A program made the translations under genes and the position numbers. Below are positions 6,015 through 44,798 of a stretch of DNA of 62,792 nt, one piece after another. The notes beneath the pieces are model-generated. The model was given only the letters and a program-made list of their open reading frames with translations, had not been told where the DNA came from and searched no databases. The DNA comes from a bacterium. Lineage in GTDB: Bacteria > Patescibacteriota > Dojkabacteria > JAKAPS01 > JAJZLI01. Numbering within the stretch: position 1 is the stretch's first letter; every line of letters begins with the position of its first letter. Location: assembly GCA_021785355.1 (NCBI GenBank), contig JAJYFR010000005.1, positions 1-62,792 on the forward strand. Direction: 5' to 3'.

Positions 6015-7241
6015 TCATTCATATCTAAGAGCTTCAATAGGAGATAATCTTGAAGCTTTATATGCAGGAAAAATACCAAATATAAGCCCTATTGTAATTG
6101 AAACTGTAATTGAAAGTATAATTGCTAATGAAGATATAATAAAAGGCACTTTTATTATATAAGAGGCCACTACATAATCAAGAAATATTCCAATAAAAAC
6201 ACCTATAAATCCTCCTATAATAGTTATTAGAATAGCTTCTACTAAAAATTGATATAATATATCACTATTTTTTGCACCAACAGCTTTTCTTAATCCTATC
6301 TCCCTAGTTCTTTCTGTTACAGAAACAAGCATTATATTCATAATTCCTATTCCTCCTACGATAAGAGATATACCTGCAATTCCTCCTAGTAAAAGTGTGA
6401 AGGTCCCTGTTATGGTATTTAGTGTTGTAAGTATCTGAGTTTGATTAGTAATATTAAAATTAGCTTGATTTACATTTGTAATTCCTTGCACTCTCATTAA
6501 AGTATTTTCTACTTCAGCTGTAGCCTCATTCATAACACTAGCACTACTTGCTTGTAATGTTATTGAACTGTATCCTACATTTCCAAATAATTCTGACTGT
6601 GCAGTACTAATAGGTATTGCAACTTGATTATCTTGATTAAAAGAACCTCCTGTAGATCCCTTAGATTGAGTAATACCAATTACAGTAAAAGATCTATTTC
6701 CAATAGTAACAGATTTTCCCATTGGATTCGAATTTGGAAAAAGCTCACTTGCAACAGTAGGACCCAATACAATTACAGGTAAATTATATTTTATATCAGG
6801 TTCTGTAATAAAAGATCCTTTTTCCATTGTAATATTATTTACTATTTGTGCCGATGGAGTGACACCCTCTATTAATGTAACTGCATTTTGACTTTTATAT
6901 ATAAGCTCTCCTGATTTACTAATAACAGGAGAAATGGCTATAACATCAGGTGTATTATTTTGAGAACTAAGTGCTACTACATCATTCTGATTAAGAGTAT
7001 TTGCAGTTCCTATTCCTTGTCTAACATTACCAACTTTAGCATTTCCAGACGTTACTATAATAAGATTCGATCCAAGATTCTGAATATTTTGAGTAATTTT
7101 AGACTGAGTACCCTGACCAACAGATATTAAAGCTATAACAGAAGCTATCCCTATAATAATACCAAGTGCTGATAATATAGTTCGTCCTAGATTAATAGTC
7201 AGAGAATGAATAGATGTATAAAGTAATTTTTTGAATGTCAT
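6015..7241 (-). CDS. ABC transporter permease, MacB/FtsX family
   Basis: 408 aa. It has an N-terminal TM helix, a large extracytoplasmic domain and three C-terminal TM helices with a typical FtsX-family end (AYKASRLSPIEALRYE). Confidence 0.85.
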   Translation of the reverse strand: MTFKKLLYTSIHSLTINLGRTILSALGIIIGIASVIALISVGQGTQSKITQNIQNLGSNLIIVTSGNAKVGNVRQGIGTANTLNQNDVVALSSQNNTPDVIAISPVISKSGELIYKSQNAVTLIEGVTPSAQIVNNITMEKGSFITEPDIKYNLPVIVLGPTVASELFPNSNPMGKSVTIGNRSFTVIGITQSKGSTGGSFNQDNQVAIPISTAQSELFGNVGYSSITLQASSASVMNEATAEVENTLMRVQGITNVNQANFNITNQTQILTTLNTITGTFTLLLGGIAGISLIVGGIGIMNIMLVSVTERTREIGLRKAVGAKNSDILYQFLVEAILITIIGGFIGVFIGIFLDYVVASYIIKVPFIISSLAIILSITVSITIGLIFGIFPAYKASRLSPIEALRYE

Positions 7242-7927
7242 ATTCTTTGTTGTTTTATAATTTTATCTTCAATTAATACTCCGTCTTTAAGCATAATTTT
7301 TCTTTTTGCTCTATTTCCTATATCTTCCTCATGTGTAACTATTACTATTGAGTGACCTTCATCATTTAGATCTTGTAGAATTTTTATAATTTCTAGTGTT
7401 GATTTTGAATCCACATTACCTGTAGGTTCATCTGCTAATATTAAAGTTGGTTCTTGCGCTAATGCTCTTGCTATAGCAACTCTTTGTTGTTGCCCTCCAG
7501 ATATTTGATTTGTTTTAAAATATGCACGTTTATCTATTCCTAATTTTTTGAGAATTTCCATTGCTTTTTTCTCTGCAATATCAGTATTCTCACCTCTATA
7601 CAGAAGAGGTAATATAACATTCTCTATTACAGTAGTGCGAGGGAGAAGGTTAAATGCTTGGAATACAAAACCTATATATTTATTTCTTACAGATGAAAGT
7701 TCTCTTTCTTTTATATCTATAGTATTTACTCCGTCTAGTATATATTCTCCTCTTGTGGGTTTATCCAAAAGTCCCATTATATGCATTAGTGATGATTTTC
7801 CTGAACCTGAAGCTCCCATAATACTTACATATTCACCTGATTCTATTTGAAGATTAATATTGTTAAGAGCAATAACTTCATTTTCTACATCACCATATAT
7901 TTTATATATATCTTTTAGTTTAATCAT
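7238..7927 (-). CDS. ABC transporter ATP-binding protein (MacB/LolD-like)
   Basis: Walker [10 protein letters not shown], signature [14 protein letters not shown] and Walker B ILADEPTG. Confidence 0.9.
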
Positions 7928-9243
7928 AATCCTAACTGTTTACCCAGTCCTTTTGCCTTCCCTCCTATATTTTTTGTACTAGAAGACTTTATATGGAATG
8001 AACTATTCCCATTTATAACAATTTTATTTCCTAAAGAAAGTCCACTTACTATTTGTGTATAATATATATTACTAATTCCTGTTTTAACAAATCTTCTTAT
8101 CTGGTGACCTTTTTGATCAAGTATTACAAACGGTTGTCCTTGTGTTGTATAAATTAGTGCAGAATTTGGTATTAATAAAACATTATTAGCACTCTTAGTT
8201 ATTATGTTTACATTCGCACTCATTCCAAGTTTAATTCCAGAAGGAGCATTGTGAATACTTATAGTTACACCGTAATTTACTACATTTTGTATAATAGTAG
8301 ATGATGGCTCAATTGATGTTACAACTCCTCTAAATGTTTGATTTGGATAAGCAGTTAAAGTTATACTTACATTTTGTCCAATAGATACACTTGCTATTGA
8401 ACTTTCATCCACATATGCAAATATTTGAGCAGATGATGTATCTGCAATAGTAATAAATGAATTACCTGCAACATTTGATATACCACTTTGTGCAGAAGAA
8501 ATTCCTTTAGAACCTCCTTGAGAAGAAGCACCTACTTGCTCATTTGGTGCTATAGAAGAAAGAAATATAACAGTTCCTGAAATAGGAGATATAAGTGTTG
8601 CTTGAGAAAGATTATTCTGTGCTTGCTCTAAATTTATATATGCATTATTTTTAGCATCTATAAGTGGAGCAAGGTTATAGTAGAGAGGTTCTTGTTGAGC
8701 ATTTACAAGATTTTGTTGATCATTTTGCACTAAAGTATTATCAGTCTGTACTTTTGCTAGTATTGATGAATAATTAGGTGATGTAGTTGAAGTAGATTGA
8801 AGTGTTATTTGGTCTGCATTTAAAGTAGATTCTGCTTGATTTAGAACATTTTGAGCATTTTGTACATCTTGGGAAGCTTGTCCATAAAGAGCATTTATTT
8901 TTTGTTGAGCTATATCATAATTATTTTGAGCTATTTGAACATTTTGAGAAAGAATAGTTGTATCTAAAGTTGCTAATTTTTCTCCTATTTGTACATTTTG
9001 ACCATCTTTAACATATACTTGTGCTAGTTTTCCAGATATAGGGAAATTTAACTCTGTCATATTACCAAAAACTACATTTCCGACGGAAGAAACATTTTGA
9101 GTTATACTACCAGTTTTAATTGTATATAATTTAATGGTTTTTTGTTTTGTTATTACAAAAGAGTTATATATAAAATATATTACTCCTAAGACAATAATTG
9201 CTAATACTATTTTTGCAATAAGACTTTTTTTTATTATTTTCAT
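7924..9243 (-). CDS. HlyD/MacA-type membrane fusion (periplasmic adaptor) protein
   Basis: 439 aa. It has an N-terminal TM helix, a lipoyl-like segment (GQNVQIGEKLATLD), a long Q/N-rich coiled coil and a beta-barrel C-terminus. It overlaps both neighbouring genes. Confidence 0.8.
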   Translation of the reverse strand: MKIIKKSLIAKIVLAIIVLGVIYFIYNSFVITKQKTIKLYTIKTGSITQNVSSVGNVVFGNMTELNFPISGKLAQVYVKDGQNVQIGEKLATLDTTILSQNVQIAQNNYDIAQQKINALYGQASQDVQNAQNVLNQAESTLNADQITLQSTSTTSPNYSSILAKVQTDNTLVQNDQQNLVNAQQEPLYYNLAPLIDAKNNAYINLEQAQNNLSQATLISPISGTVIFLSSIAPNEQVGASSQGGSKGISSAQSGISNVAGNSFITIADTSSAQIFAYVDESSIASVSIGQNVSITLTAYPNQTFRGVVTSIEPSSTIIQNVVNYGVTISIHNAPSGIKLGMSANVNIITKSANNVLLIPNSALIYTTQGQPFVILDQKGHQIRRFVKTGISNIYYTQIVSGLSLGNKIVINGNSSFHIKSSSTKNIGGKAKGLGKQLGL

Positions 9244-9611
9244 TATATTACTATTATAAATTTAGCTATAATACCGTTTTTAGAATGTAGACCAATAACA
9301 CTTATTGTTACTCCATTTTGTAAAGTACTCACATTCTCTAAACTATTACCTCTATATATTTTTGTATTTTTATTTATATTTATATTTGTACCATTAATAG
9401 TGATACTCTTTGCAGTTATATTACTTATATTACCTTCTTCTTGTATAAATACAGTAGGTTTTGTTTTTCCTTTAGATGAAATAGTACTACTACTTACATT
9501 TCGTTTACCTTTATGATGTAATACTTTATGAGGTATTAAATAGCCTATTATTCCAAATATAATAGCTACAATTATTAAAATAATAATGTTCCTTATTTTT
9601 TGATTTTTCAT
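9243..9611 (-). CDS. Single-pass membrane protein with beta-rich C-terminal domain; paralog of 44340-44798
   Basis: 122 aa. The C-terminus NISNITAKSITING...KTKIY...IAKFIIVI aligns with NISNNSITINN...KTSIY...IARFVIVIK of 44340-44798. It is the first gene of the efflux operon. Confidence 0.65.
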   Translation of the reverse strand: MKNQKIRNIIILIIVAIIFGIIGYLIPHKVLHHKGKRNVSSSTISSKGKTKPTVFIQEEGNISNITAKSITINGTNININKNTKIYRGNSLENVSTLQNGVTISVIGLHSKNGIIAKFIIVI

Positions 9612-9646: not shown

Positions 9647-9674
9647 ATACAATATTTTATATAAAAATGTTTCA
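9647..9674 (-). promoter_or_regulatory. ECF-type promoter candidate, TGAAAC-N17-TGTAT
   Basis: The minus strand reads TGAAAC ATTTTTATATAAAATAT TGTAT. It ends 35 nt upstream of the ATG at 9611. The same architecture occurs at 17609, 17643, 44248 and 44279. Confidence 0.6.
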
Positions 9675-9800: not shown

Positions 9801-10328
9801 ATGAATATAAAAAAACTTTTAATAGGAGGGACTTTGAGTCTTGTAGTATTAGCTTTAAGTGCTGTTTCTGTTTTTGCAAAAGGTGGATTTAATCAATTTG
9901 GATATAATTACGGTGCAAGAATTTTTAATGGAACAAATGCTAGTTTTTGTGCATCACTAAAAGCTCCTTCAAATTGTGATGGAAATCCTTATGATAAAGT
10001 TATTATGAAATGGAATGCACAGTGGGATAATTGTAATGCAAATGGATATAATAATCCCAAATACTGTTTAGGTGCTTGGGTAGATAATGAATATAATGGT
10101 AAAGTACCTAATGGTTCCGGAGTAGTCTGGCATTATAAAATTATTTGGGTTGGTTCAGCAGGAGCTTCTAGTCCATATTGGTTAGCAGGAGGTTATTCTA
10201 TTTGGGGTAATTATGAAGTAATAATGGATCAAGGTATCAATAGTACCTGTAGTGGTAATGTAGACACTGGACATCAATTTTGTGCATTAGCAACACCAAA
10301 TGGTTATGGAGCAGTTTTTGCTAAATAA
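9801..10328 (+). CDS. Secreted Cys-containing hypothetical protein
   Basis: 175 aa with a signal peptide (LSLVVLALSAVSVFA/KG), 8 Cys and a Gly/Asn/Tyr/Trp-rich composition. It has a strong SD, GGGGGTGA, 7 nt before the ATG. Confidence 0.7.
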   Translation: MNIKKLLIGGTLSLVVLALSAVSVFAKGGFNQFGYNYGARIFNGTNASFCASLKAPSNCDGNPYDKVIMKWNAQWDNCNANGYNNPKYCLGAWVDNEYNGKVPNGSGVVWHYKIIWVGSAGASSPYWLAGGYSIWGNYEVIMDQGINSTCSGNVDTGHQFCALATPNGYGAVFAK

Positions 10329-10388: not shown

Positions 10389-11090
10389 TTATTCAAAAAT
10401 CTCAATACTATCCTCTGCGCCTGTTGTAGATAATAAAGACATCATTTCTTTATATTGAGAATTATACTCCTCTCTAGCTTTTTCACCATGATAAATTCCC
10501 ATACCAGCCAAGCTTAAAGATGTAAGTTCTAAACCTCTTTTTACAAATTCATTATCTGTATCATTAGTTGCAATAGCACATACTAAAGATATAAGTTTTT
10601 CTGCCATAGCTTTCTTACCTCTCTTTGAAGTAGGGAGCACTAGTTTATCTCCACTAGAATTATGTGTTGATTTTCTAAGTTTAGTATAATTATGTGATGA
10701 TTTTAATGCCCATATAGATTTTATGCCCTCTTGTCCTAATATACTTAGAATTGCAACTTTACTCATAGGACTTACTCTTGGTGCAAAAGAAGCTGCAGAT
10801 GAAACTATTAATATGCTCAATGTATCAGAAATTTGATCTCCCATAGCTCCTATTTTTGTAGTTCCAATATTTAATTCTGGAAAATTTTTATCAAAAAATC
10901 TTGCAACTTTACCATCCATATCTGATAATGCCATAAGTGCAATAATAGGCGTAATAGGTTTTTCTCCTGCTAAAAGCATTTTATCTACTAACAAAGCTAA
11001 TGCAGGTCTACTCAGTGTCATTATATTAGCCGGAGTAATTAATCTGTCTTTTTTTTCTTGAATATTGTCAGTATGCCTTAAATTTTCCAT
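10389..11090 (-). CDS. CDP-alcohol phosphatidyltransferase-like protein (divergent)
   Basis: DGKVAR...GAMGDQISD fits DGx2AR...Gx3Dx3D, but the spacer is longer than canonical. The C-terminal half is not obviously hydrophobic. Confidence 0.4.
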   Translation of the reverse strand: MENLRHTDNIQEKKDRLITPANIMTLSRPALALLVDKMLLAGEKPITPIIALMALSDMDGKVARFFDKNFPELNIGTTKIGAMGDQISDTLSILIVSSAASFAPRVSPMSKVAILSILGQEGIKSIWALKSSHNYTKLRKSTHNSSGDKLVLPTSKRGKKAMAEKLISLVCAIATNDTDNEFVKRGLELTSLSLAGMGIYHGEKAREEYNSQYKEMMSLLSTTGAEDSIEIFE

Positions 11091-13055: not shown

Positions 13056-13609
13056 AAAGTATTCTATTTGCAACAACCAACATAAGAAAACTTAGAGAAG
13101 CTGAAGCTGGATGTAGAGAATGGGGGATTGAAGTAAATCAAATAGAGTTAAATATTAATGAGATACAGTCTAAAGATACAAGGTATATATCTTTAAATAA
13201 AGCTGAAGAAGCTTTTAGGTTAGTCCAAAAACCCTTAGTCATAACTGATACATCATGGACAATACCTTCATTAAATGGTTTTCCTGGTGGATATATGAAG
13301 GATATTGCTTCGTGGTTTGAAGCTGAAGATTTTATTAATTTACTGAAATCCAAAAAAGATAAAAGAATTAGTTTTACTGAATGTATAGTATATAAAGATA
13401 AAATTAATACTAAGGTATTTAGTAATGAATATTGGGGTATTGTAACTGATACTCCAAGAGGAAAGGGGACTTCAAGTATAGAGAAAGTTGCAGAATTTAA
13501 AGGATTCACAATAGCAGAAAAACATGACAATGAAGAATTTTCTCATGATCCAAAAGAATATATTTGGTATAAATTTGCTAAATGGTATTCAAAGTATACT
13601 ACGAGATAA
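13052..13609 (+). CDS. rdgB: Non-canonical purine NTP pyrophosphatase (Ham1/RdgB family)
   Basis: N-terminus MKSILFATTNIRKLREAE (ATGNxGKxxE-like) and a later SLNGFPGGYMK motif. I prefer the ATG at 13052, which overlaps the previous stop as ATGA, over the GTG at 13031 in the ORF track. Confidence 0.7.
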   Translation: MKSILFATTNIRKLREAEAGCREWGIEVNQIELNINEIQSKDTRYISLNKAEEAFRLVQKPLVITDTSWTIPSLNGFPGGYMKDIASWFEAEDFINLLKSKKDKRISFTECIVYKDKINTKVFSNEYWGIVTDTPRGKGTSSIEKVAEFKGFTIAEKHDNEEFSHDPKEYIWYKFAKWYSKYTTR

Positions 13610-14581
13610 AGCTAGTTTTACTATATTCAAAATCATAGCCTCATACTCTAAATTTATATTTAACATACAAGCTTTTGGAAATGATCCATATCCATTAATT
13701 AAACTTGGAATAAGATTGGCTTCTAAAAAATGAGGTGTACCATTTTTATCTAATCTAATATCTATCCTACCATAATCACGAGCTCCCAGAGCATGAAAAG
13801 CTTTGATTGAAAGATCTGTAATTTTAGATTTAATACTCTGATCTGTAACAACTAAAACTCTTTCTATATTTGATTCTTTTACTTTTTTACTTAGAAGTAA
13901 TCTTCCATATTTATCTGGATGAGAAACTAATTCAATTGGCATTATATGATAACCTTCTTTTATCCTATCCTTTAGAATAGCTACACTAAACTCACGACCA
14001 GGTAAATATTCTTCTATCAGTGAATCTGTATGTAACCTTTTTGATATTAATCTTACTTTCAGGCAAAGCTCTTCAAAATTATGAACTACAGAATCACTAT
14101 CAATTCCCAATCCTCCGCCTCGATTTATTGGCTTAATAAATAAAGGAAATATTAAAGATTTATCTTCTCTTATTTGAGAACAATTTTGTTTAACAACATA
14201 AAATGGTGAGGTTTTAAGTCCTGCTTTAATTATTCTTTTCTTTGCTAAAGATTTATTAAATTCAAGCTCATGTGCAAATTGAGTTGACCCTGTATGTGCT
14301 ATTTTATGATCTTTTAAATATTGTGTTATCCAAATCTTTGAAGGATCTTCTAAACGTAGTATTTCATCTATTGATATAAATTTCATACCTAGAAAAACTA
14401 AATCTGGTTTATTCTTAACTAATTTTTTAAGATCTGACAAATTATTAACAGTAGTAATACTGACATTGGTGTAATGATTTTTTAATACATTAAATATTGC
14501 ATTGGAAGATTCTAAACTCATTGAACTAAGCCAATTTTTACTAGAACGTACAATCTCAATATGTTTATTTATTTTTGTCAT
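13589..14581 (-). CDS. ATP-grasp ligase, D-alanine--D-alanine ligase-like
   Basis: FPLFIKPINRGGGLGI, EEYLPGREFSVAIL and GRIDIRLDKNGTPHFLEANLIP are typical Ddl-type ATP-grasp motifs. Its 3' end overlaps the convergent rdgB-like gene by 21 nt. Confidence 0.7.
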   Translation of the reverse strand: MTKINKHIEIVRSSKNWLSSMSLESSNAIFNVLKNHYTNVSITTVNNLSDLKKLVKNKPDLVFLGMKFISIDEILRLEDPSKIWITQYLKDHKIAHTGSTQFAHELEFNKSLAKKRIIKAGLKTSPFYVVKQNCSQIREDKSLIFPLFIKPINRGGGLGIDSDSVVHNFEELCLKVRLISKRLHTDSLIEEYLPGREFSVAILKDRIKEGYHIMPIELVSHPDKYGRLLLSKKVKESNIERVLVVTDQSIKSKITDLSIKAFHALGARDYGRIDIRLDKNGTPHFLEANLIPSLINGYGSFPKACMLNINLEYEAMILNIVKLALSRSIL

Positions 14582-14756: not shown

Positions 14757-15947
14757 TTATATCTGTGTATCGAGTATTTCATTCTTTCTTCGCTCCCTTT
14801 TATCATATTTACTATATTTACCCACTAATATATTTAGATATGGTATCTGCATTATTAAAAGAACAATAGACAAAGAAATTAATACCGTTAACATCCATCC
14901 TAGTATAATTATTATTCCTCCTATATATGGAATATTATTATATTTATAAATAGGGAACATTATATTACTTGATACCATATTAAGTATAATTGGATGTATC
15001 AAATATATTCCAAATGCTGCTTCTGATACTATCAGAAAAAATTTAACTAAACTTTTATTTATCTTTTTTAATAAATGGATTTTATTTTTACTAATACTTA
15101 AAGATATTTTATATAATATAAATATTAGAGATAAACTGTAACTAATAACTAAAGGTTGATCAAAAGAAGATGCTATTGCTATAGGAAGATGAAATACTAA
15201 TATCTCTATATAATAACTTAATAATAATACTAGAGTTGATAGTATGAAAAATAAAATAAATTTAAAATAATTTTTCTTAAATTCTTTTTCAATATCATTT
15301 ACATATAGTGCAAAAAATCCTCCAAGGAATATATATACAAGATAAAATAATATAAACCTATATTGAATATGAGTAAGTCTTAAAACAAATTTATAATTAG
15401 TATTATTTACCTTTAAAAAGAAATAAGTATAACTCATTAATAAAAATTGAAATATACCTAAGGATAATAGAGTTATAAAAACTTTATCTTTTAATTTATT
15501 TAATATTTTTATAAAAAAAGGTAATAGTATGTATAATTGTATTGCAAGAAGAATGTAATATAACTGATACTCTGCAGAACCTGTTATGATAGCATATACA
15601 TAATTATATAAACTAGGATTCTTTATGTATAAAGCAACATATATAATACTCCATATAATATAAGGAATTATTATACCTAAAGTCCTTTTCTTCCAAAAAT
15701 TTATTAAATTAAGATTGGGTTTATTGTAAACATAAACTAACACAAATGCTGTTATAAAAATAAATGTTTGACGATTATATCTTAATAACAGTAATATCAT
15801 AAACTGAATTATAGACCAAAAATTATTAGTATCTACAAAGGTTATAGTACCTACTGTATGCATAGCAACAACACTAATAACTGTAATACCTCTTATGATA
15901 TCTGCTTCATATCTATGATTTACATTTCTTTTTTTAATTATGCTCAA
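14757..15947 (-). CDS. Acyltransferase-3 family membrane protein (OafA/WecH-like)
   Basis: 396 aa and polytopic. The N-terminal YEADIIRGITVISVVAMH is typical of the family. It is a close paralog of 19157-20296. Confidence 0.8.
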   Translation of the reverse strand: MSIIKKRNVNHRYEADIIRGITVISVVAMHTVGTITFVDTNNFWSIIQFMILLLLRYNRQTFIFITAFVLVYVYNKPNLNLINFWKKRTLGIIIPYIIWSIIYVALYIKNPSLYNYVYAIITGSAEYQLYYILLAIQLYILLPFFIKILNKLKDKVFITLLSLGIFQFLLMSYTYFFLKVNNTNYKFVLRLTHIQYRFILFYLVYIFLGGFFALYVNDIEKEFKKNYFKFILFFILSTLVLLLSYYIEILVFHLPIAIASSFDQPLVISYSLSLIFILYKISLSISKNKIHLLKKINKSLVKFFLIVSEAAFGIYLIHPIILNMVSSNIMFPIYKYNNIPYIGGIIIILGWMLTVLISLSIVLLIMQIPYLNILVGKYSKYDKRERRKNEILDTQI

Positions 15948-15959
15948 AAATTTATTCCT

Positions 15960-17579
15960 TTATTTTTTTAAGAATATTATTTTATTTTCTTCTAAATATT
16001 TTAGAATTTTATCAATACTTTCTTTTATAGACAACTGAGAAGTATCTATGACAATTTCGGCTCTCTGAGGTACTTGATATGGATCATCTATACCTGTCAT
16101 TTTCATTCCTTTATTATTTTGTGCAGAATTATATAAACCCTTTACATCTCTATTAATACAAATATCTAGTGGAGTAGATAGATAAATTTCTATGTATCTA
16201 CCATGCTTAGATATAAGCTCTCTATTTTTTAATCTAGATGAGTTATATGGAGCTATTGCAGAACAAATAGCTATTCCTCCATGTTTTGTGATTTCATTTG
16301 CTACAAAACCAATTCTCTCTATATTTATATTTCTATCATCCTTAGAAAATCCTAAACCTTGTGACAGATTATTTCTAACAACATCCCCATCTAACAAAGA
16401 TATAGATCTTTCTTGAATTTCTTGTAATTTTATATATAAATGTTTTGCTAATGTTGATTTTCCAGAAGAAGGAAGTCCTGTGAAAAATATAGTTAGACCA
16501 TCTCTATTATTCCTAAAATAACCTTTTTTAATCTCTTCAATTACTTCTGTGAAAGAAAACCAACTAGGAATCTCTTTTCCTTCTGATATCATTTTTCTAA
16601 ATTCAGTACCAGATATATTTTTTATCTTTTGATTTTTATTTATTTTATCTATTTCAAAATATTTATCTTCATCCTCTACATATACCATCTCTTGAAATGG
16701 TATCATTTCTATTCCAATGTCTTTTTCATACATCTTAACTAACTCCTGAGCATCATATGCTCCATAAAAATCGTTTCCCTGACTATCCTTAGGCTCTGCA
16801 TGATGTCTTCCTACTATAAAGTGAGTACATCCGTAGTTTTTTCTTATAATGGCATGCATAAGAGCTTCTTTTGGGCCTCCCATTCTCATAGCTAAAGGAA
16901 GTAAAGATATCTGAGAAAAATCATTAGCATATTTATTCTTTATATGAATATATGATTTTACCCTTGTTATATAATCTATATCACCATCATTTGTAACTCC
17001 TACAGAAGGATGGATAAGAACCTTAATTCCATAATTATCATAAACACTCTTTATCATATAAAAATGAGCTTTATGTATAGGATTTCTCGTTTGAAAAGCA
17101 CATACCTTATCCCAATTATTGTCTTTAAACCATTTTTTTAACTCTTCTGGGGTATGTCTATATTCTGAAAAATCAAATCTATCTATATCATTAATTTTCT
17201 CCACATTTCCTCCCAAAGCGAATTTATGAGTTTTATTCATTATATAATTAACTCCATAATGCTCTCTATTAGAAGTACCATACACACTCTCTACTTCTTT
17301 ATCCTTTTGTAGTTTAAAAATAGAAGAGATATTAATAATAGCTATTGGTTTTCCATACTCATCTGACAGCTGTATTCTATCCCCAATACTAAACTCATCT
17401 ATATTATCTACATCAAGTATTATAGGAATAGGCCATAAAACACCACTAGGTAATCTCATGTTCTCTATAACAGATATATATTCTTCTTCTTCCATAAAAC
17501 CCTTTAATGGAAAGAATCCTCCATTCATTATTAATTCTAAATCACATAATTGTCTTTCTGTTAGTTTAATCTTCTTCAT
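15960..17579 (-). CDS. Bifunctional sulfate adenylyltransferase / adenylylsulfate kinase (PAPS synthesis)
   Basis: ATP sulfurylase motifs QTRNPIHKAH and GRHHAEP. The C-terminal APS kinase has P-loop GLPSSGKSTLA and LDGDVVRNNLSQGLGFSKDDRNINIERI. Confidence 0.9.
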   Translation of the reverse strand: MKKIKLTERQLCDLELIMNGGFFPLKGFMEEEEYISVIENMRLPSGVLWPIPIILDVDNIDEFSIGDRIQLSDEYGKPIAIINISSIFKLQKDKEVESVYGTSNREHYGVNYIMNKTHKFALGGNVEKINDIDRFDFSEYRHTPEELKKWFKDNNWDKVCAFQTRNPIHKAHFYMIKSVYDNYGIKVLIHPSVGVTNDGDIDYITRVKSYIHIKNKYANDFSQISLLPLAMRMGGPKEALMHAIIRKNYGCTHFIVGRHHAEPKDSQGNDFYGAYDAQELVKMYEKDIGIEMIPFQEMVYVEDEDKYFEIDKINKNQKIKNISGTEFRKMISEGKEIPSWFSFTEVIEEIKKGYFRNNRDGLTIFFTGLPSSGKSTLAKHLYIKLQEIQERSISLLDGDVVRNNLSQGLGFSKDDRNINIERIGFVANEITKHGGIAICSAIAPYNSSRLKNRELISKHGRYIEIYLSTPLDICINRDVKGLYNSAQNNKGMKMTGIDDPYQVPQRAEIVIDTSQLSIKESIDKILKYLEENKIIFLKK

Positions 17580-17608
17580 AGTTTTATCTAAATAATTAAT
17601 GAATTGTT

Positions 17609-17636
17609 ATACATAAAAAATAGAGAAAATGTTTCA
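17609..17636 (-). promoter_or_regulatory. ECF-type promoter candidate, TGAAAC-N17-TGTAT (drives the PAPS synthase arm)
   Basis: The minus strand reads TGAAAC ATTTTCTCTATTTTTTA TGTAT. It ends 29 nt upstream of the ATG at 17579. Confidence 0.6.
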
Positions 17637-17642
17637 ATTGCA

Positions 17643-17670
17643 TGAAACATTTTCTTAATTTATATTGTAT
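17643..17670 (+). promoter_or_regulatory. ECF-type promoter candidate, TGAAAC-N17-TGTAT (drives the adenylate-forming enzyme arm)
   Basis: The plus strand reads TGAAAC ATTTTCTTAATTTATAT TGTAT. It ends 42 nt upstream of the ATG at 17713. Its -35 is the other half of the palindrome AAAATGTTTCA-ATTGC-ATGAAACATTTT. Confidence 0.6.
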
Positions 17671-17712
17671 TTATATATCAAGTAACACATTTATTTTTTC
17701 ATATGAAAATTT

Positions 17713-19179
17713 ATGGAATCTTCGTATTATAATAAAAACTTATATAGTAAACTTGAGTTTTGGGCAATAAAAAATCCTAATAAAACTTTTATATATGACA
17801 CTCAAAGTAGCATACACTTAAGCTACTTTGAGACAAAAAATATTGTAGACAATATTATTTTCTATCTCTCAGATAAAAAACATACTATTATGTTTATTGA
17901 TGAAAATAACACACTTTCTTCAATACTTTGGATAGCAGCTCTTTCTGGAGGTCATAGAATAATACCTCTACATTCTCAGGTATCTGAAGCTGATCTAGAA
18001 AAATTAATTGAATATTTTAATCCTGATTTATTTATAACAAATAGAACTTCAGATATTATAGATAAAGTTAAGACAATAATAAAAGAAGAAGACCTTTTAT
18101 ATAATTTAAAAAAATCAAAATCTATAGGTGAGATTAGAGATGAAGGTATCGTTTATCTTACTACATCAGGAAGTACAGGAACCCCTAAAAAAATTGCTCT
18201 CAAAGAAAGTCAGCTTTATAATACAGCTTTGAATGTAGTAAAAGTCCACGAATCAAAAGAAAATGATGTGTGTCTAAACTTTTTATCCTTCTCCCATATA
18301 AATGCACCTGTAATAGCTCTATTCTCAACTTTAATATCAGGAGGTACTATTATAAATTCTAAATTTAGTAAAACTAATTTTTGGAAAATTACAACAGAAC
18401 TTAAAGTAACATGGGTAAACGCTGTGCCTACTATTATTAATATACTTTTAGAAACAAATCATAATAAAAAAAGTAATATAGGATTTATAAGAACAGGTAG
18501 TGCACCTATATCTAAAAATATAATCACAAAATTTGAAAAAAAATTTGATATTCCTATAATTGAAACTTACGGTGCAACTGAATCTTGTAGTCAAATAACT
18601 GCAAATAATAAGAATTTAAGAAAAATTGGATCTGTAGGGAAACCTCAGGGACTAGAACTTATTATCTGTAATAAAGATAAAGATATTCTAGAAGAATTGG
18701 ATTCTAATACTGTAGGGGAAGTATGTATAAAAGGATTTAGCGTTATAAAAAAATATGAAGATAAAGGTTTCGAGAATAATTTCATAAATGGTTTTTTTAA
18801 AACAGGAGATTTAGGATATAAAGATAAAGATGGTTTTATTTTTCTTACGGGAAGAAAAAAAGATATTATTATATCTAAAGGTGAAAATATTTATCCAAAA
18901 GAAATAGAGGATACTTTAATAAAATATGAAGGCATAAATGAGGTTGCTGTTATAGGAGAGAAAGATGATATTCTAGGAGAGAGAGTTGTAGCATTTATAG
19001 TATTAGAAGATAAATATGATTTCAAAGAAGAACATTTTAACAATTGGATAGAAGCCAGGTTATCTAAATATAAAATACCTCATAAATTATTATTTGTAGA
19101 AGATTTTCCAAGATTAAGAAGTTATAAAATAGATAAAATGAAATTAAGAGAATACATTGATGATAAAAAAACAATCTAA
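17713..19179 (+). CDS. AMP-dependent synthetase/ligase (adenylate-forming enzyme)
   Basis: AMP-binding motif TTSGSTGTPKK, then TGDLGYKDKDGFIFLTGRKKDIIISKGENIYPKEIE. No carrier-protein gene is seen nearby. Confidence 0.85.
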   Translation: MESSYYNKNLYSKLEFWAIKNPNKTFIYDTQSSIHLSYFETKNIVDNIIFYLSDKKHTIMFIDENNTLSSILWIAALSGGHRIIPLHSQVSEADLEKLIEYFNPDLFITNRTSDIIDKVKTIIKEEDLLYNLKKSKSIGEIRDEGIVYLTTSGSTGTPKKIALKESQLYNTALNVVKVHESKENDVCLNFLSFSHINAPVIALFSTLISGGTIINSKFSKTNFWKITTELKVTWVNAVPTIINILLETNHNKKSNIGFIRTGSAPISKNIITKFEKKFDIPIIETYGATESCSQITANNKNLRKIGSVGKPQGLELIICNKDKDILEELDSNTVGEVCIKGFSVIKKYEDKGFENNFINGFFKTGDLGYKDKDGFIFLTGRKKDIIISKGENIYPKEIEDTLIKYEGINEVAVIGEKDDILGERVVAFIVLEDKYDFKEEHFNNWIEARLSKYKIPHKLLFVEDFPRLRSYKIDKMKLREYIDDKKTI

Positions 19180-20296
19180 AAAATTACGAAGATATGAAGC
19201 TGATATTCTAAGAGGAGTTACCATATTCTCTGTAATGGGAATGCATACAGTTGCAACCATAACATATATAGATACAAATAATACATATCTATATATTCAA
19301 TATCTTATAATATTACTATTTAGATATAATAGACAAGTCTTTATTTTCATAACAGCATTTATACTAGTATATATATATAACAGACCTGATTTTAATGTAA
19401 GAGAATTTTTTAAAAAAAGAATTTTCTCAATTATAATACCCTATATAATCTGGAGTATTATATATGTCTTTATATTTAATAGACATGCAACTTTATGGAA
19501 ATATATATATGATATACTTACAGGCTCTGCTTATTATCAATTGTACTATATCCTTCTTGCAATTCAATTATATCTACTCTTACCATTTTTTATAAAAATA
19601 CTAAATAAACTTAAAGATAAAACAGTAATAACCCTTACAATTGTTAGCATAATTCAAATTTTAATTATAAGCTACACTTACTTTTATTTAAAAAATATAC
19701 CAGATAAATCAACCTTAGATAATATAATATTAGCAATTCAAGATAAATTCATACTCTTCTATATAGGATATATATTTATGGGAGGATTTATAGCTTTGCA
19801 TATAAATAAATTTGAGAGAGAAGTAAAAAAATATATAAAACAAATATATGTATTTTTTGCACTATCATTTATAGCAACAATTCTCTCATATATAATAGAG
19901 ACAAAAATATTCAACCAATCTATCTATTATGCATCTTCCTTTATGCAACCTATGATAATTATATATAGTATATCTATAATACTATTATTTTTTTCTATCA
20001 CACTTAATTTTATAAATAAAACAAAAGATATTAATAATAATAAAATAATAAAATTCATTTTTTTAGTCTCTGAAAGTTCTTTTGGTCTATATCTTATACA
20101 TCCAATAATTTTAGATATAATATCTTATCTTTTATATTTTCTAAGATTATATATACCAGGAGTAATACTTGTAATATTAGGATGGTTTATAACATTTTTA
20201 ATTTCTCTTTTAATAGTAGTTATAGCCCTAAATATTCCTTATATTAATTTTCTAGTAGGGAAGTTCAAGAGAAAAATAGATTTATTTAATGCTTAA
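19157..20296 (+). CDS. Acyltransferase-3 family membrane protein, paralog of 14757-15947
   Basis: It shares long identical blocks with 14757-15947, for example RYNRQxFIFITAF, IIPYIIWSIIYV and YQLYYILLAIQLYxLLPFFIKILNKLKDK. Confidence 0.8.
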   Translation: MMIKKQSKKLRRYEADILRGVTIFSVMGMHTVATITYIDTNNTYLYIQYLIILLFRYNRQVFIFITAFILVYIYNRPDFNVREFFKKRIFSIIIPYIIWSIIYVFIFNRHATLWKYIYDILTGSAYYQLYYILLAIQLYLLLPFFIKILNKLKDKTVITLTIVSIIQILIISYTYFYLKNIPDKSTLDNIILAIQDKFILFYIGYIFMGGFIALHINKFEREVKKYIKQIYVFFALSFIATILSYIIETKIFNQSIYYASSFMQPMIIIYSISIILLFFSITLNFINKTKDINNNKIIKFIFLVSESSFGLYLIHPIILDIISYLLYFLRLYIPGVILVILGWFITFLISLLIVVIALNIPYINFLVGKFKRKIDLFNA

Positions 20297-21297: not shown

Positions 21298-21326
21298 TTG
21301 ACCGACATATATGTATGATGTATAAT
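21298..21326 (+). promoter_or_regulatory. Near-consensus sigma-70 promoter of vapBC
   Basis: TTGACC-N17-TATAAT. The spacer contains the palindrome ACATATATGT. The -10 ends 9 nt before the vapB ATG at 21336. Confidence 0.6.
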
Positions 21327-21335
21327 TCATATATT

Positions 21336-21584
21336 ATGATTAGAACACAGATTTATATACCTGAAAATTTACATAAAAAACTTATATATTTAGCCGAGAA
21401 AAAAAATAAATCTATGGCTGAGTGTATACGTATTTTTATTAAAGAAGGAATCAAAAAAGATGAGACTTTAGATATTAGTGGAAAAGATGTATTAAAAAAG
21501 ATATCTCTTTTAAACTTTGTTGGAGGGAATAAAGATATGTCTTCTAAAATAGATGAAATTATATATGGTAATGGAAAAAAATAG
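21336..21584 (+). CDS. vapB: Ribbon-helix-helix (CopG-like) antitoxin
   Basis: MIRTQIYIPENLHKKLIYLAEKKNKSMAECIRIFIKEG shows the RHH pattern. I prefer the start at 21336 because the longer ORF from 21315 would include the promoter -10. Confidence 0.65.
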   Translation: MIRTQIYIPENLHKKLIYLAEKKNKSMAECIRIFIKEGIKKDETLDISGKDVLKKISLLNFVGGNKDMSSKIDEIIYGNGKK

Positions 21585-21993
21585 TAAAAGAGTAATTTTT
21601 ATTGATTCAGACATATTTATAGCATTATCCAAAAGTGATGACAGTAACCATGATAAAGCTTTAAAAATTCTGAATAAATTCTTTGATGAAATTATTTTTA
21701 CTACATCTAATTATGTAATATCTGAGGTGATTACAGTTTTAAGTATGCAATTGGGTCATTCTCAAGCCTTAGATTTTATCAATACAATTAAATCTGAAGA
21801 AAACATATTCTCAATAAATTGGGTAGATGATAAAGTTGAAAACTTGGCGATAGAAATTTTTAAAAAACAAACATCAAAAAATACAAGCTTCACTGATTGC
21901 ACTAATATGGCCTTTATAGAAATGTTAAAATTGGATGGAATATTTAGCTTTGATAGTGTCTATAAGAAAAATAAATGTGTCATTTTAGAATAA
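21571..21993 (+). CDS. vapC: PIN-domain toxin (VapC family)
   Basis: VIFIDSDIFIAL (first acidic residue), a central SEV and FTDCTNMAFIE. It overlaps the antitoxin 3' end. The start could also be 21553. Confidence 0.7.
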   Translation: MEKNSKRVIFIDSDIFIALSKSDDSNHDKALKILNKFFDEIIFTTSNYVISEVITVLSMQLGHSQALDFINTIKSEENIFSINWVDDKVENLAIEIFKKQTSKNTSFTDCTNMAFIEMLKLDGIFSFDSVYKKNKCVILE

Positions 21994-42199: not shown

Positions 42200-43123
42200 A
42201 TGGATAATATATATAATAATATAATACTAGGATCAGGACCTGCAGGTATAACTGCTGCTATTTATGCAGCTAGGTCTAATCTTAAACCTTTATTACTTTC
42301 AGGTGATACGGAAGGTGGACAACTTATTGTTACCTCTTTAGTAGAAAATTTTCCTGGATTTGAAAATGGAATATTAGGTCCAGATCTAATGAATAACATG
42401 ATAAAACAGGCAGAGAATGTTGGAGTAGAGTATATACGTGAAAGTGCAATAATGGTAGATCTAAAAAATTATCCATTAAAAATTGTAACTGGAAAGAATA
42501 CATATCTGACAAAAAGCCTTATTATTTCAACAGGAGCTACTGCAAAATGGTTAGATATACCAGGAGAAAAAGAATTAATGGGAAAAGGAGTTTCAGGTTG
42601 TGCAACATGTGATGGAATGTTTTTTAAAGAAAAAGAAATTGTAGTAGTAGGAGGAGGGGATAGTGCGATGGAAGAAGCTTTATTTTTAACTAAATTTGCA
42701 TCAAAAGTAACAATTATTCATAGGAAAGATTCTTTTAGAGCATCCTCTATAATGCAGAAAAAAGTTTTTGATAATCCTAAAATAGAAATTCTATTCGAAA
42801 GTGAAGTTGTTAAAATTAATGGAGATATGAAAGTTGTAAGTATAAATATAAAGAATAAAGATAGAGAATATGAATTTCCTACAGAAGGAGTATTTATAGC
42901 TATTGGACATAATCCAAATACTTCTATTTTTAAAGATCAAATAGATTTGGATGGTAATGGATATATAAAAGTTAAAGATAATACCAAAACTAATATAGAA
43001 GGAGTGTTCGCCGCAGGAGATGTTGCAGATCCTATATACAGACAAGCTATATCATCTGCAGGAATAGGATGTATTGCTGCAATAGATGCTCTACATTATT
43101 TGGAAAATTCTAAGAAATTATAA
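42200..43123 (+). CDS. trxB: Thioredoxin-disulfide reductase
   Basis: GSGPAG FAD motif, redox centre CATCDG and GGGDSAMEEA NADPH motif. Confidence 0.92.
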   Translation: MDNIYNNIILGSGPAGITAAIYAARSNLKPLLLSGDTEGGQLIVTSLVENFPGFENGILGPDLMNNMIKQAENVGVEYIRESAIMVDLKNYPLKIVTGKNTYLTKSLIISTGATAKWLDIPGEKELMGKGVSGCATCDGMFFKEKEIVVVGGGDSAMEEALFLTKFASKVTIIHRKDSFRASSIMQKKVFDNPKIEILFESEVVKINGDMKVVSINIKNKDREYEFPTEGVFIAIGHNPNTSIFKDQIDLDGNGYIKVKDNTKTNIEGVFAAGDVADPIYRQAISSAGIGCIAAIDALHYLENSKKL

Positions 43124-43486
43124 GACATATAGGATACCTTTTGATTTAGATATTATCTTTATGTATACATACTCATTCTTTTTTAATACATTTCTACTTA
43201 AAACTTTTCCCTGAGCAGATAATATTTTAAAATGATCTATAAAGAAAATATTCTTATATTTATTAAGATCAATTATAGATATTGTTTTTTTTGATATACT
43301 ATATATCTTACCTACATAATGATCATTATTCATTGATATTTGTTGATTTACAGCAAAATGTCTTTTATATCCAAAAAATCTCAGATGAGAGCCAACAATT
43401 GCACCAAAAGCAAATATGCCAAATAATACTATTGCTATTACTATTCCTAGTATAAATGAAATTAAAATAAGTTTACTTTTCTCCAT
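43118..43486 (-). CDS. Single-pass membrane protein with beta-rich C-terminal domain (last gene of the ECF sigma operon)
   Basis: 122 aa. It has the same architecture as 9243-9611 and 44340-44798, with weaker similarity (GKIYSISKKTISII). Confidence 0.6.
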   Translation of the reverse strand: MEKSKLILISFILGIVIAIVLFGIFAFGAIVGSHLRFFGYKRHFAVNQQISMNNDHYVGKIYSISKKTISIIDLNKYKNIFFIDHFKILSAQGKVLSRNVLKKNEYVYIKIISKSKGILYVL

Positions 43487-43734
43487 AAAATTTTAAATCT
43501 TGATATTGAATATATAATTACTGCCATTGATAATGCTGCTAAAAACACATAATAAATATTAGGAATCTGATAAACAGAAAGAATTATTACAAAAATAAAA
43601 GTTGAGATTAATAACCCATATAAAAATGGATATAGATATAAATATCTCTTCTCAATCTTCTTAATTTTATTAAAGACATTTTCATTAAAATTTTCACTCA
43701 ACATTTCATTTTTATACATAATCTTTAATTTCAT
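43462..43734 (-). CDS. Putative anti-sigma factor (small two-TM protein)
   Basis: Assigned by position immediately after and overlapping the ECF sigma gene. No HxxxCxxC motif is present, so the call rests on context only. The start is uncertain (43734, 43719 or 43704). Confidence 0.4.
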   Translation of the reverse strand: MKLKIMYKNEMLSENFNENVFNKIKKIEKRYLYLYPFLYGLLISTFIFVIILSVYQIPNIYYVFLAALSMAVIIYSISRFKILWRKVNLF

Positions 43735-44233
43735 TTTTTAATAAATCTTTAGCCCTTCTAATCCTTGTTTTTACAGTATTTATAGAAATATCTAATAAAT
43801 TTGATATCTCTCCATATTTAAAACCTTCTATATAATACATAGTTAATACTTTCTTATATTTATCTCCTATATTCTTTAATCCTAAATATAATAATTCCTT
43901 ATTTTCTACTTGACTCTCAGTATTGTTAACCTCTTCAAGCTCATATGTTAAATTATACATTTTTCTTTCTTTTAATTTATTAATTGTAGTTCTTCTTGCT
44001 ATAGTAAATATCCATGTAGAAAAAGAACCTTTGTCTGGATTAAAAGAAGACAATTTAAAATATACTTTAACAAAGATATCTTGAGTTATGTCTTCTGAAT
44101 CCTCTGCAGAAGAAAGATATTTTAAAACAAAATTATATATTCTGTTCTTATATCTATTCATTAGTATTTCAAAGAACTGAATATCCCCAGTTGAATTTAA
44201 TTTTTTTATAATATCTTCATCACTACAATCCAT
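43712..44233 (-). CDS. ECF (group IV) RNA polymerase sigma factor
   Basis: 173 aa. Region 2 reads DITQDIFVKVY...WIFTIARR. Region 4 HTH reads YGEISNLLDISINTVKTRIRRAKDLL. Confidence 0.85.
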   Translation of the reverse strand: MDCSDEDIIKKLNSTGDIQFFEILMNRYKNRIYNFVLKYLSSAEDSEDITQDIFVKVYFKLSSFNPDKGSFSTWIFTIARRTTINKLKERKMYNLTYELEEVNNTESQVENKELLYLGLKNIGDKYKKVLTMYYIEGFKYGEISNLLDISINTVKTRIRRAKDLLKNEIKDYV

Positions 44234-44247
44234 ACTCTTATTATAAT

Positions 44248-44275
44248 ATACAATTAATAAATATAATATGTTTCA
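44248..44275 (-). promoter_or_regulatory. ECF-type promoter candidate, TGAAAC-N17-TGTAT (autoregulatory, sigma operon)
   Basis: The minus strand reads TGAAAC ATATTATATTTATTAAT TGTAT. It ends 14 nt upstream of the sigma ATG at 44233. Confidence 0.6.
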
Positions 44276-44278
44276 TAA

Positions 44279-44306
44279 TGAAACATTTTTATTACTTATA
44301 ATGTAT
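44279..44306 (+). promoter_or_regulatory. ECF-type promoter candidate, TGAAAC-N17-TGTAT (divergent partner)
   Basis: The plus strand reads TGAAAC ATTTTTATTACTTATAA TGTAT. It ends 33 nt upstream of the ATG at 44340. Its -35 is the other half of the palindrome ATGTTTCAT-A-ATGAAACAT. Confidence 0.6.
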
Positions 44307-44339: not shown

Positions 44340-44798
44340 ATGGATAAAAATAATCAAACAGAACATAGTGAAAAATTTCATCATTCTTTGCATAAAAGAA
44401 AATTGATTTTTCTTTTAGTAGGTATAGTATTATTAATCTTATTTTTCTTTTTTGGAATATTTGTAGGAAGAGTAAGCGGATATTTAAGAAATTCTAATTT
44501 TGAAAGAAACAACATGAGGGGATACTCTTCTAGAAACGGAATGATGAGAAATTTCAGAAATTCTTCAAATTCTAGAAGAATACAACTTTCAGATGTACAA
44601 GGAGTTATACAGAATATAAGTAATAATAGTATAACAATAAATAATAGAAGTTATTCTATATCAACAAAAACTTCTATATATAATAATGGTATAAGAGAAA
44701 GCTTAAGTAATCTTTCAAATTTAAATACAGTAAATTTAATCTATTCTGTGGATAAATCTGGATTAGATATAGCACGTTTTGTAATTGTTATAAAATAA
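44340..44798 (+). CDS. Single-pass membrane protein with beta-rich C-terminal domain; paralog of 9243-9611
   Basis: I prefer the ATG at 44340, because the ORF-track start at 44268 would include the promoter palindrome. It has a TM helix, an R/N/S-rich linker and then NISNNSITINN...IARFVIVIK. Confidence 0.65.
   Translation: MDKNNQTEHSEKFHHSLHKRKLIFLLVGIVLLILFFFFGIFVGRVSGYLRNSNFERNNMRGYSSRNGMMRNFRNSSNSRRIQLSDVQGVIQNISNNSITINNRSYSISTKTSIYNNGIRESLSNLSNLNTVNLIYSVDKSGLDIARFVIVIK

Follow-up and report, generated by a model that had tools for sequence, protein, structure and literature searches.

Predicted back-to-back promoters of a SigW-like ECF sigma factor between the two arms of a sulfation/acylation locus in a Patescibacteria genome

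The contig JAJYFR010000005.1 (assembly GCA_021785355.1), from an uncultivated Dojkabacteria bacterium of the Patescibacteriota, was analysed over its whole length of 62,792 nucleotides, which is called the window here, and the analysis centres on an inverted repeat and a pair of divergent promoter-like motifs at positions 17609-17670. The inverted repeat is housed in a 133-bp intergenic gap between two divergent genes, a minus-strand gene for a bifunctional 3'-phosphoadenosine 5'-phosphosulfate (PAPS) synthase and a plus-strand gene for an adenylate-forming enzyme, referred to as the AMP-ligase (Table 1). The PAPS synthase scores 734.8 bits on the NCBIfam model NF004040, for which the cut-off is 669, and both of its domains are present. 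Its gene is followed on the minus arm by a gene for a membrane acyltransferase of the Acyl_transf_3 family; a terminator scan detected no terminator-like site between these two genes, which are probably co-transcribed. On the plus arm, the AMP-ligase gene is followed by a second Acyl_transf_3 gene and by a gene for a 304-amino acid (aa) protein. A gene for an extracytoplasmic function (ECF) sigma factor and its operon lie in the right-hand part of the window.

The two 12-nt arms of the inverted repeat are perfect reverse complements of each other around the centre ATTGCA. Read outward, the minus strand from 17636 to 17609 gives TGAAAC-ATTTTCTCTATTTTTTA-TGTAT and the plus strand from 17643 to 17670 gives TGAAAC-ATTTTCTTAATTTATAT-TGTAT, and the extended word TGAAACATTTT, which is the -35 box plus a T-tract, is present on both strands. 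The minus-strand site stands 29 nt from the ATG of the PAPS synthase gene, and the plus-strand element agrees with the element at 44278-44306 at 24 of 29 positions. From the positions of the boxes, transcription would start at about 17676-17679 on the plus strand and at about 17600-17603 on the minus strand, placing the two starts about 75 bp apart. An earlier note on this DNA, the original prediction, had described an inverted repeat between the PAPS synthase gene and the adenylate-forming enzyme gene, and the sequence is as it described; its palindrome stands and only its division of the repeat, given as 12-5-13 where we count 12-6-12, differs trivially. The outward TGAAAC...TGTAT elements that it reported are read exactly on both strands with a spacer of 17 nt, its match of about 23 of 29 positions to the element at 44279-44306 is one position higher by our count, and the ECF sigma factor gene that it placed about 26 kb from the locus is found there.

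Table 1. Coordinates of the genes and predicted regulatory elements in the window
Feature	Coordinates	Strand	Remarks
Perfect inverted repeat, 12-nt arms + 6-nt centre	17625..17654		GAAAATGTTTCA (17625-17636) ATTGCA TGAAACATTTTC (17643-17654); two extended -35 boxes back to back
P(plus), predicted ECF-type promoter TGAAAC-N17-TGTAT	17643..17670	+	-35 at 17643-17648, -10 at 17666-17670; AMP-ligase operon
P(minus), predicted ECF-type promoter TGAAAC-N17-TGTAT	17609..17636	-	-35 at 17636-17631, -10 at 17613-17609; PAPS synthase gene
Bifunctional sulfate adenylyltransferase/adenylylsulfate kinase (PAPS synthase)	15960..17579	-	Pfam PUA_2, ATP-sulfurylase, APS_kinase; minus arm, first gene
Membrane acyltransferase (Acyl_transf_3)	14757..15947	-	Pfam E 1.2e-27; 12 nt downstream of the PAPS synthase gene
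Adenylate-forming (AMP-binding) enzyme (AMP-ligase)	17713..19179	+	Pfam AMP-binding, AMP-binding_C; plus arm, first gene
Second membrane acyltransferase (Acyl_transf_3)	19157..20296	+	Pfam E 1.7e-31; overlaps both neighbours
Predicted divergent PAPS-dependent sulfotransferase, 304 aa	20289..21203	+	Plus arm, third gene
ECF sigma factor, 173 aa, SigW-like	43712..44233	-	Pfam Sigma70_r2 (residues 24-90), Sigma70_r4_2 (residues 125-163)
Putative anti-sigma factor, 85-90 aa, two transmembrane segments	43462..43734	-	Overlaps the end of the sigma gene
Transmembrane protein, 122 aa, DUF5666-like layout	43118..43486	-	Sigma operon, third gene; synteny kept at every ortholog locus
Predicted autoregulatory promoter TGAAAC-N17-TGTAT	44248..44275	-	Ends 14 nt before the sigma ATG
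Predicted divergent promoter of the same type	44279..44306	+	Small transmembrane + DUF5666-like gene; -35 box 3 bp from that of the sigma promoter
Transmembrane + DUF5666-like protein, 152 aa	44340..44798	+	Weak DUF5666 match; paralog of the 9243-9611 gene (E 1.7e-6)
Predicted fifth promoter TGAAAC-N17-TGTAT	9647..9674	-	Before the operon 6015-9611
Operon: DUF5666 protein, HlyD-type adaptor, ABC ATPase, MacB/FtsX permease	6015..9611	-	Pfam; behind the fifth promoter

The motif scan covered the 62.8-kb window, which has a G+C content of 26%, in a genome of roughly 0.75 Mb, and sites were gathered with an exact-match pattern. TGAAAC-N17-TGTAT occurs exactly at five sites of the window where about 0.1-0.25 are expected, a 20- to 50-fold enrichment, and when the spacer is allowed to vary (N15-19) six sites are found against 0.25 expected, a number that is reached by none of 100 shuffled sequences. 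All five N17 sites are intergenic and oriented toward a gene start, and two of them flank the sigma factor gene, which is the sole one of the window, no other sigma gene having been found there; such an arrangement is classic for ECF factors that regulate themselves. The inverted arrangement TGTTTCA-N(0-12)-TGAAACA is found twice in the window against 0.03 expected. Searched as a single word with one mismatch allowed, TGAAACATTTT is not enriched in the window (8 found, 7.3 expected), and therefore the signal lies in the bipartite arrangement. A 34-nt position weight matrix trained on sites outside the window ranks the five window sites 1-5, yet over-fitting of the AT-rich spacer makes its scores overlap those of a Markov null, whose maximum is 18.0, and so the matrix is not used as evidence of significance. 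A scan of the window for the sigma-70-type consensus was uninformative in such AT-rich DNA (76 matches found, 81 expected), and the Rfam scan, run over the entire window, yielded no match; no tRNA genes were found in the window. The leaders of the five window sites are 14-42 nt long and are without an obvious Shine-Dalgarno sequence. Divergent from the fifth promoter, a gene at 9801-10328 codes for a 175-aa protein with a signal peptide that is rich in Cys, Trp, Asn and Gly and has no family match; the Shine-Dalgarno sequence of this gene (AAGGGGGTG) is among the few strong ones seen in the window.

The sigma factor has the layout of the ECF (group 4) proteins, with regions sigma-2 and sigma-4 only, within about 170-200 aa, and it scores 95.9 bits on the NCBIfam model TIGR02937 (sigma70-ECF) against a cut-off of 42.9. 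Its best NCBIfam model is SigW, and its best match in the PDB is Bacillus subtilis SigW (5wuq, E 4.7e-21). Since its scores on the two SigW equivalog models (NF007223 / TIGR02948), 100.7 bits for the best and 96.4 bits for the second, stay below the cut-offs of 209 and 243 bits, respectively, the protein is best described as SigW-like and not as a SigW ortholog. The paper on the SigW sigma-4 crystal structure with its -35 DNA gives the -35 consensus TGAAACNTTT, which is contacted by T168, K170, T171, R172 and R175 of the recognition helix, plus H174 (PMC6713349). In the HMMER alignment, the recognition helix reads TVKTRIRR in the window sigma and TVKTRIHR in B. subtilis SigW, so that T168, K170, T171, R172 and R175 are identical and H174 is replaced by Arg. 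Gaballa et al. have described an extended -35 element of Bacillus ECF promoters, tGAAACnTTTt, and the SigW-specific -10 element CGTA (PMC5758882). The window word TGAAACATTTT fits the SigW-type -35 element exactly and also matches this extended element. On the other side of the sigma promoter, both a mechanical open reading frame and the public gene call (176 aa) place the start of the divergent DUF5666-like gene at 44268, an ATG that falls within the -35 palindrome; the true start is most likely 44340, where another ATG in the same frame lies downstream of the promoter. The proteins encoded at 9243-9611, 43118-43486 and 44340-44798 have a common layout, an N-terminal transmembrane helix followed by a DUF5666-like beta domain, and all three small genes sit behind predicted promoters of the sigma type; two of the three are detectable paralogs (E 1.7e-6).

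Orthologs of the sigma factor, 14 in number with 44-60% identity, were found in sequences labelled "Patescibacteria group bacterium" at their source. Their genes always stand in the same module, in which the sigma gene is followed first by a gene for a protein of about 95 aa (85-95 aa overall) with two transmembrane segments and then by one for a transmembrane protein of 120-143 aa. DNA was retrieved for four further sigma lineages (loci L001/L088/L089, L085/L086, L087 and L090/L091), and in all four of them an exact TGAAAC-N17-TGTAT is present 8-40 nt upstream of the sigma ATG, with spacers unrelated in sequence; the relatives were read with flanks of 10 kb. About 127 kb of these sigma-ortholog loci contain only two other exact copies, both of them in L087 and before genes, one for a DUF5666 protein divergent from the sigma gene and one for a GNAT acetyltransferase. 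The motif before the sigma orthologs is thus best read as the phylogenetic footprint of an autoregulated ECF promoter. L087 also has a divergent pair equivalent to the 44248/44279 pair of the window, with a gap of 11 bp. When the window and its relatives are taken together, the TGAAAC-TGTAT spacing is N17 in 17 sites. Because the gap between paired -35 boxes varies, being 6 bp at 17630, 3 bp at 44269 and 11 bp in L087, and because the sites driving one gene have one -35 box only and no palindrome, the palindrome is an incidental by-product of the geometry of two divergent promoters.

The AMP-ligase promoter can also be followed in relatives. Orthologs of the AMP-ligase with 49-50% identity (P0026 in L097/L098 and P0025 in L099) head operons with the same gene order as in the window, namely AMP-ligase, Acyl_transf_3 and a protein of about 315 aa, and an exact TGAAAC-N17-TGTAT lies 27 nt upstream of their ATG (L097 7946-7973, L099 1475-1502). 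The gene of about 315 aa carries its own promoter copy in these relatives. L097 belongs to the same metagenome-assembled genome (MAG), GCA_021829415.1, as the sigma-ortholog locus L089, and it also has a TGAAAC-N18-TGTAT before the orthologous DUF5666-MacB operon, upstream of the true start. The public call of the DUF5666 ortholog there (L097 5432-5860, 133 aa) includes about 12 codons too many, the start by alignment with the window protein being MENKNL.... A search of GTDB representative genomes for the AMP-ligase locus gave distant matches only, with identities of at most 34%.

Neither a palindrome nor a PAPS synthase gene is present at the AMP-ligase loci of L097 and L099, where the divergent neighbour is an Acyl_transf_3 gene that lies 445 bp away and is without the motif. 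A search of GTDB representative genomes for the PAPS synthase locus returned nothing, and the closest homologs of the enzyme (59-64% identity) are encoded in unrelated contexts, either beside PFK or within a glycan cluster that includes Sulfotransfer_3, without the motif. Since the PAPS synthase gene is absent at L097 6363-8000, the syntenic locus of the nearest relative, and its homologs are distant and surrounded by unrelated genes, it appears to be an insertion, specific to this lineage, that separates the Acyl_transf_3 gene from the AMP-ligase gene. The original prediction had suggested comparing related genomes to see if the palindrome co-varies with the sigma gene and had taken its absence from a sulfation locus of a sigma-retaining genome as a refutation. 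Such an absence is literally what is seen in the relative with L097 and L089, where the plus promoter is kept, so that the palindrome as such is not a conserved unit. The PAPS synthase gene is missing there as well, and therefore the missing palindrome is what a model of two divergent promoters predicts.

The contig DAIBWP010000001.1 (GCA_027424935.1) encodes an identical sigma protein and an AMP-ligase that is 98% identical, and therefore it and the window represent sister strains. Their 133-bp intergenic regions differ at six positions, one in the centre of the repeat (17640) and five in the spacer of the plus promoter, including the 12th arm base (17654). TGAAACATTTT and TGTAT are unchanged on both strands, and the minus promoter is identical throughout. 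In the comparison with L103/L104, five of the six differences fall within 11 nt (17654-17664), and the surrounding 140 nt are nearly identical; it is possible that this cluster of spacer changes is a small conversion or repair patch.

Two further observations concern the promoters of the relatives. TGTAT lies only 8-12 nt before the ATG of sigma, DUF5666, GNAT and sulfotransferase-like (about 315 aa) genes (L087 9928-10003 and 14385-14425; L097 10579-10720; L099 4108-4146), and therefore leaderless or nearly leaderless mRNAs are implied there. In L097, the promoter and the first codons of the 314-aa gene are repeated in tandem, the second copy, nearly identical, lying about 96 bp from the first (10579-10606 and 10675-10702).

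The 304-aa protein at the end of the plus arm has itself no match in Pfam or NCBIfam, and a phmmer search against the PDB gave nothing meaningful. An exhaustive HMMER search gathered about 300 relatives, and the family alignment conserves PCRSGTT (P44, R46, G48 and T50), R131 and S139, the loop of the protein itself being PCRTGTT at residues 44-50. These residues fit the pattern by which PAPS is bound at its 5'-phosphosulfate (5'-PSB) and at its 3'-phosphate (3'-PB, Arg...Ser). The best PDB match of the family profile is the CurM sulfotransferase (E 0.0017), and among 40 relatives three match Pfam Sulfotransfer_1 and five match Sulfotransfer_1 or _3. An AlphaFold2 model built with a 40-sequence alignment reaches a mean predicted local distance difference test score (pLDDT) of 95.6, compared with 39 from the single sequence, and its top 50 fold matches in the PDB are all PAP(S)-dependent sulfotransferases (50 of 50, probability 1.00, template-modelling scores of 0.35-0.54). 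Together these lines identify the protein as a divergent member of the PAPS-dependent sulfotransferases. The arms are thus functionally coupled, the PAPS synthase belonging to one and this predicted sulfotransferase to the other, and the name "sulfation/acylation locus" used in the original prediction suits a gene set of PAPS synthase, sulfotransferase, AMP-ligase and one Acyl_transf_3 protein on each arm. Right after the plus arm, at 21315-21993, a gene for a ribbon-helix-helix (CopG-like) protein of 89 aa overlaps a gene for a PIN-domain protein of 146 aa, a pair that has the features of a typical VapBC-type toxin-antitoxin system. On the other side, 175 bp downstream of the minus arm and on the same strand, a D-Ala-D-Ala-ligase-like ATP-grasp gene at 13589-14581 scores 108 bits against a Ddl cut-off of 243.

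The enrichment of the motif, its conservation at orthologous genes, the boxes spared between sister strains and the SigW-type -35 code support the proposal of the original prediction that two divergent promoters are co-controlled by the ECF sigma factor. It is thus quite likely that 17609-17670 consists of back-to-back divergent promoters that are both read by the SigW-like sigma factor of 43712-44233. The promoter code of this sigma factor is predicted to be TGAAACA-N16-TGTATA, with at least five target units. Several points weigh on the other side. All of the support is computational and comes from sequence alone. The invariance of the boxes is partly a matter of construction, the sites having been collected with an exact pattern, and the scan spans only 62.8 kb, so that a second sigma factor of the same specificity may lie elsewhere in the genome. 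The -10 element TGTAT(A) at N17 shares GTA with the SigW element CGTA at N16 but has T for C, and its recognition by the sigma factor is an assumption. Only this species has ATTTT as the tract that follows the -35 box, the relatives having mostly AAAAAT. No orthologous PAPS synthase locus was found, and the sole evidence for the minus promoter is thus the identity of its motif with others of the same genome. The putative anti-sigma factor with two transmembrane segments has no Pfam match and no recognisable anti-sigma domain.

The strongest competing explanation draws on these same points. Only the plus promoter would be functional or under this sigma factor, the minus copy being a recent inverted duplication that came with or after the insertion of the PAPS synthase gene, or else the sites would be read by another ECF sigma factor encoded outside the window. 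A recent duplication would account for arms identical over 12 nt and for a minus promoter without orthologous support, but the minus site has both boxes at exactly N17 and lies 29 nt from the PAPS synthase ATG, it is the sole candidate promoter for that gene in the 133-bp region, and it has remained unchanged between strains while the neighbouring spacer acquired five changes. As for another sigma factor, about 63 kb of a genome of roughly 0.75 Mb were surveyed, which leaves room for one, but the sigma factor of the window bears the same motif before its own gene in five lineages. We consider this explanation, in either form, unlikely.

An inverted repeat between divergent genes could also be the operator of a dimeric regulator that controls both genes and shares its operator with the sigma locus, as the perfect 12-6-12 repeat and the second TGTTTCA/TGAAACA palindrome at 44269-44285 might suggest. 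Half-site spacings of 6, 3 and 11 bp are incompatible with one dimer geometry, however, and no fewer than 11 other sites carry a lone half-site, with TGTAT always exactly 17 nt downstream and always toward a gene; in addition, the strains differ at the outermost base of the arm and at one base of the centre, and the locus has no linked gene for a transcription factor, which makes an operator very improbable. Still less credible is a hairpin that works as an intrinsic terminator in both directions or as some other structured element of RNA or DNA, even though the terminator scan flags both strands with a stem of 13-14 bp and a T-rich tail, and the inverted repeat folded as single-stranded DNA is far more stable than shuffled sequences (-11.8 kcal/mol, z -5.7). 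The genes on both sides have their starts at this place and are directed away from it, so that no transcript ends there, and the element lies upstream of both predicted starts and would not be transcribed; only 3 of the 14 pairs of the stem are G-C, Rfam gives no match, and the orthologous locus has no such hairpin. Chance similarity in a genome of 26% G+C deserves mention because short AT-rich words recur, as illustrated by the unenriched single word and by the non-discriminating spacer matrix, but an exact bipartite motif that is enriched 20- to 50-fold, is confined to gene starts and recurs at orthologous positions in diverged genomes leaves it with a negligible probability. The operator, terminator and chance readings were therefore rejected on the grounds of variable spacing, of divergent gene starts, and of enrichment together with orthologous recurrence, respectively.

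If the two divergent promoters are read by the SigW-like sigma factor, the following mechanism can be proposed. The sigma factor would be held inactive, probably by the protein with two transmembrane segments that is encoded directly downstream, until an envelope-type signal frees it. The holoenzyme would then start at about 17677 rightward into the AMP-ligase, acyltransferase_3 and sulfotransferase genes and at about 17602 leftward into the PAPS synthase and acyltransferase_3 genes. The sigma factor would also fire its own operon, giving positive feedback, as well as the divergent DUF5666 gene and the DUF5666-HlyD-ABC-MacB exporter operon. Since the predicted promoters of both arms belong to the sigma type, production and use of the sulfate donor would be turned on at the same time, within a small regulon for envelope modification and export. 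It is conceivable, although rather doubtful, that in a probably host-attached lineage this stress sigma factor drives sulfation (and acylation) of a surface polymer or lipid along with a MacB-type exporter, and that the PAPS synthase gene was recruited recently beside a pre-existing AMP-ligase operon, an inverted copy of the promoter being created. If true, the surface charge would change on induction by stress, in a logic like that of ECF-controlled D-alanylation (dlt) in the Firmicutes but with opposite sign.

The promoter layout itself is ordinary, and the prediction of a regulon for an uncultivated member of the Patescibacteria is well supported. Hardly anything is known of how transcription is regulated in the Patescibacteria, also called the Candidate Phyla Radiation (CPR), and our search of the literature on this group found no relevant study of an ECF sigma factor or its regulon, of a sulfotransferase or of promoter mapping. 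Here, a sigma factor, its promoter code and its targets appear to be recoverable without any experiment and portable to relatives. The SigW-type reading head for the -35 element and its DNA word would then be common to the Firmicutes and a CPR lineage, and the link between a stress sigma factor and a locus for PAPS synthase, sulfotransferase and acyltransferases gives a testable hypothesis for inducible surface chemistry in episymbionts.

The SigW regulon of B. subtilis is an antimicrobial and envelope-stress response. The system of the window resembles sigma-W (ECF01-type) in its -35 element, TGAAACNTTT for SigW (PMC6713349) and TGAAACATTTT here, in the order of the sigW-rsiW operon, which runs from the sigma factor's own promoter through the sigma gene to a membrane protein gene, and in a regulon enriched in membrane proteins with an ABC exporter. 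It differs in the TGTAT(A) box and the 17-nt spacer, where SigW promoters have CGTA(TA) and 16 nt (PMC5758882, in part from general background), in a downstream membrane protein of 85-95 aa that, unlike RsiW, is without a zinc-binding or other recognisable anti-sigma domain, and in its host, a Patescibacteria MAG instead of a Firmicute. The dltABCDE operon of B. subtilis, which depends on sigma-X, sigma-M and sigma-V, offers a second parallel, an adenylate-forming enzyme followed by a membrane-bound acyltransferase behind an ECF promoter with a T-tract, the dltA promoter, whose T-tract is -35 proximal, serving as the model ECF promoter of PMC5758882. The genes are not homologs of the dlt genes, however, since the acyltransferases belong to Acyl_transf_3 and not to MBOAT and no carrier protein is seen, and the additional PAPS synthase and sulfotransferase would add sulfate, a negative charge, and possibly acyl groups instead of D-alanine. 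The logic in common, proposed here from the genes, would be that a stress sigma factor brings about the chemical modification of a surface polymer. Divergent promoters read by one sigma factor are also found in the Alphaproteobacteria, in the EcfG-dependent phyR / nepR-ecfG pair. There, as here, one ECF sigma factor serves two divergent units, one of which may be its own operon, but the -35 boxes of the window lie so close together (3-6 bp) that they form a near-perfect palindrome.

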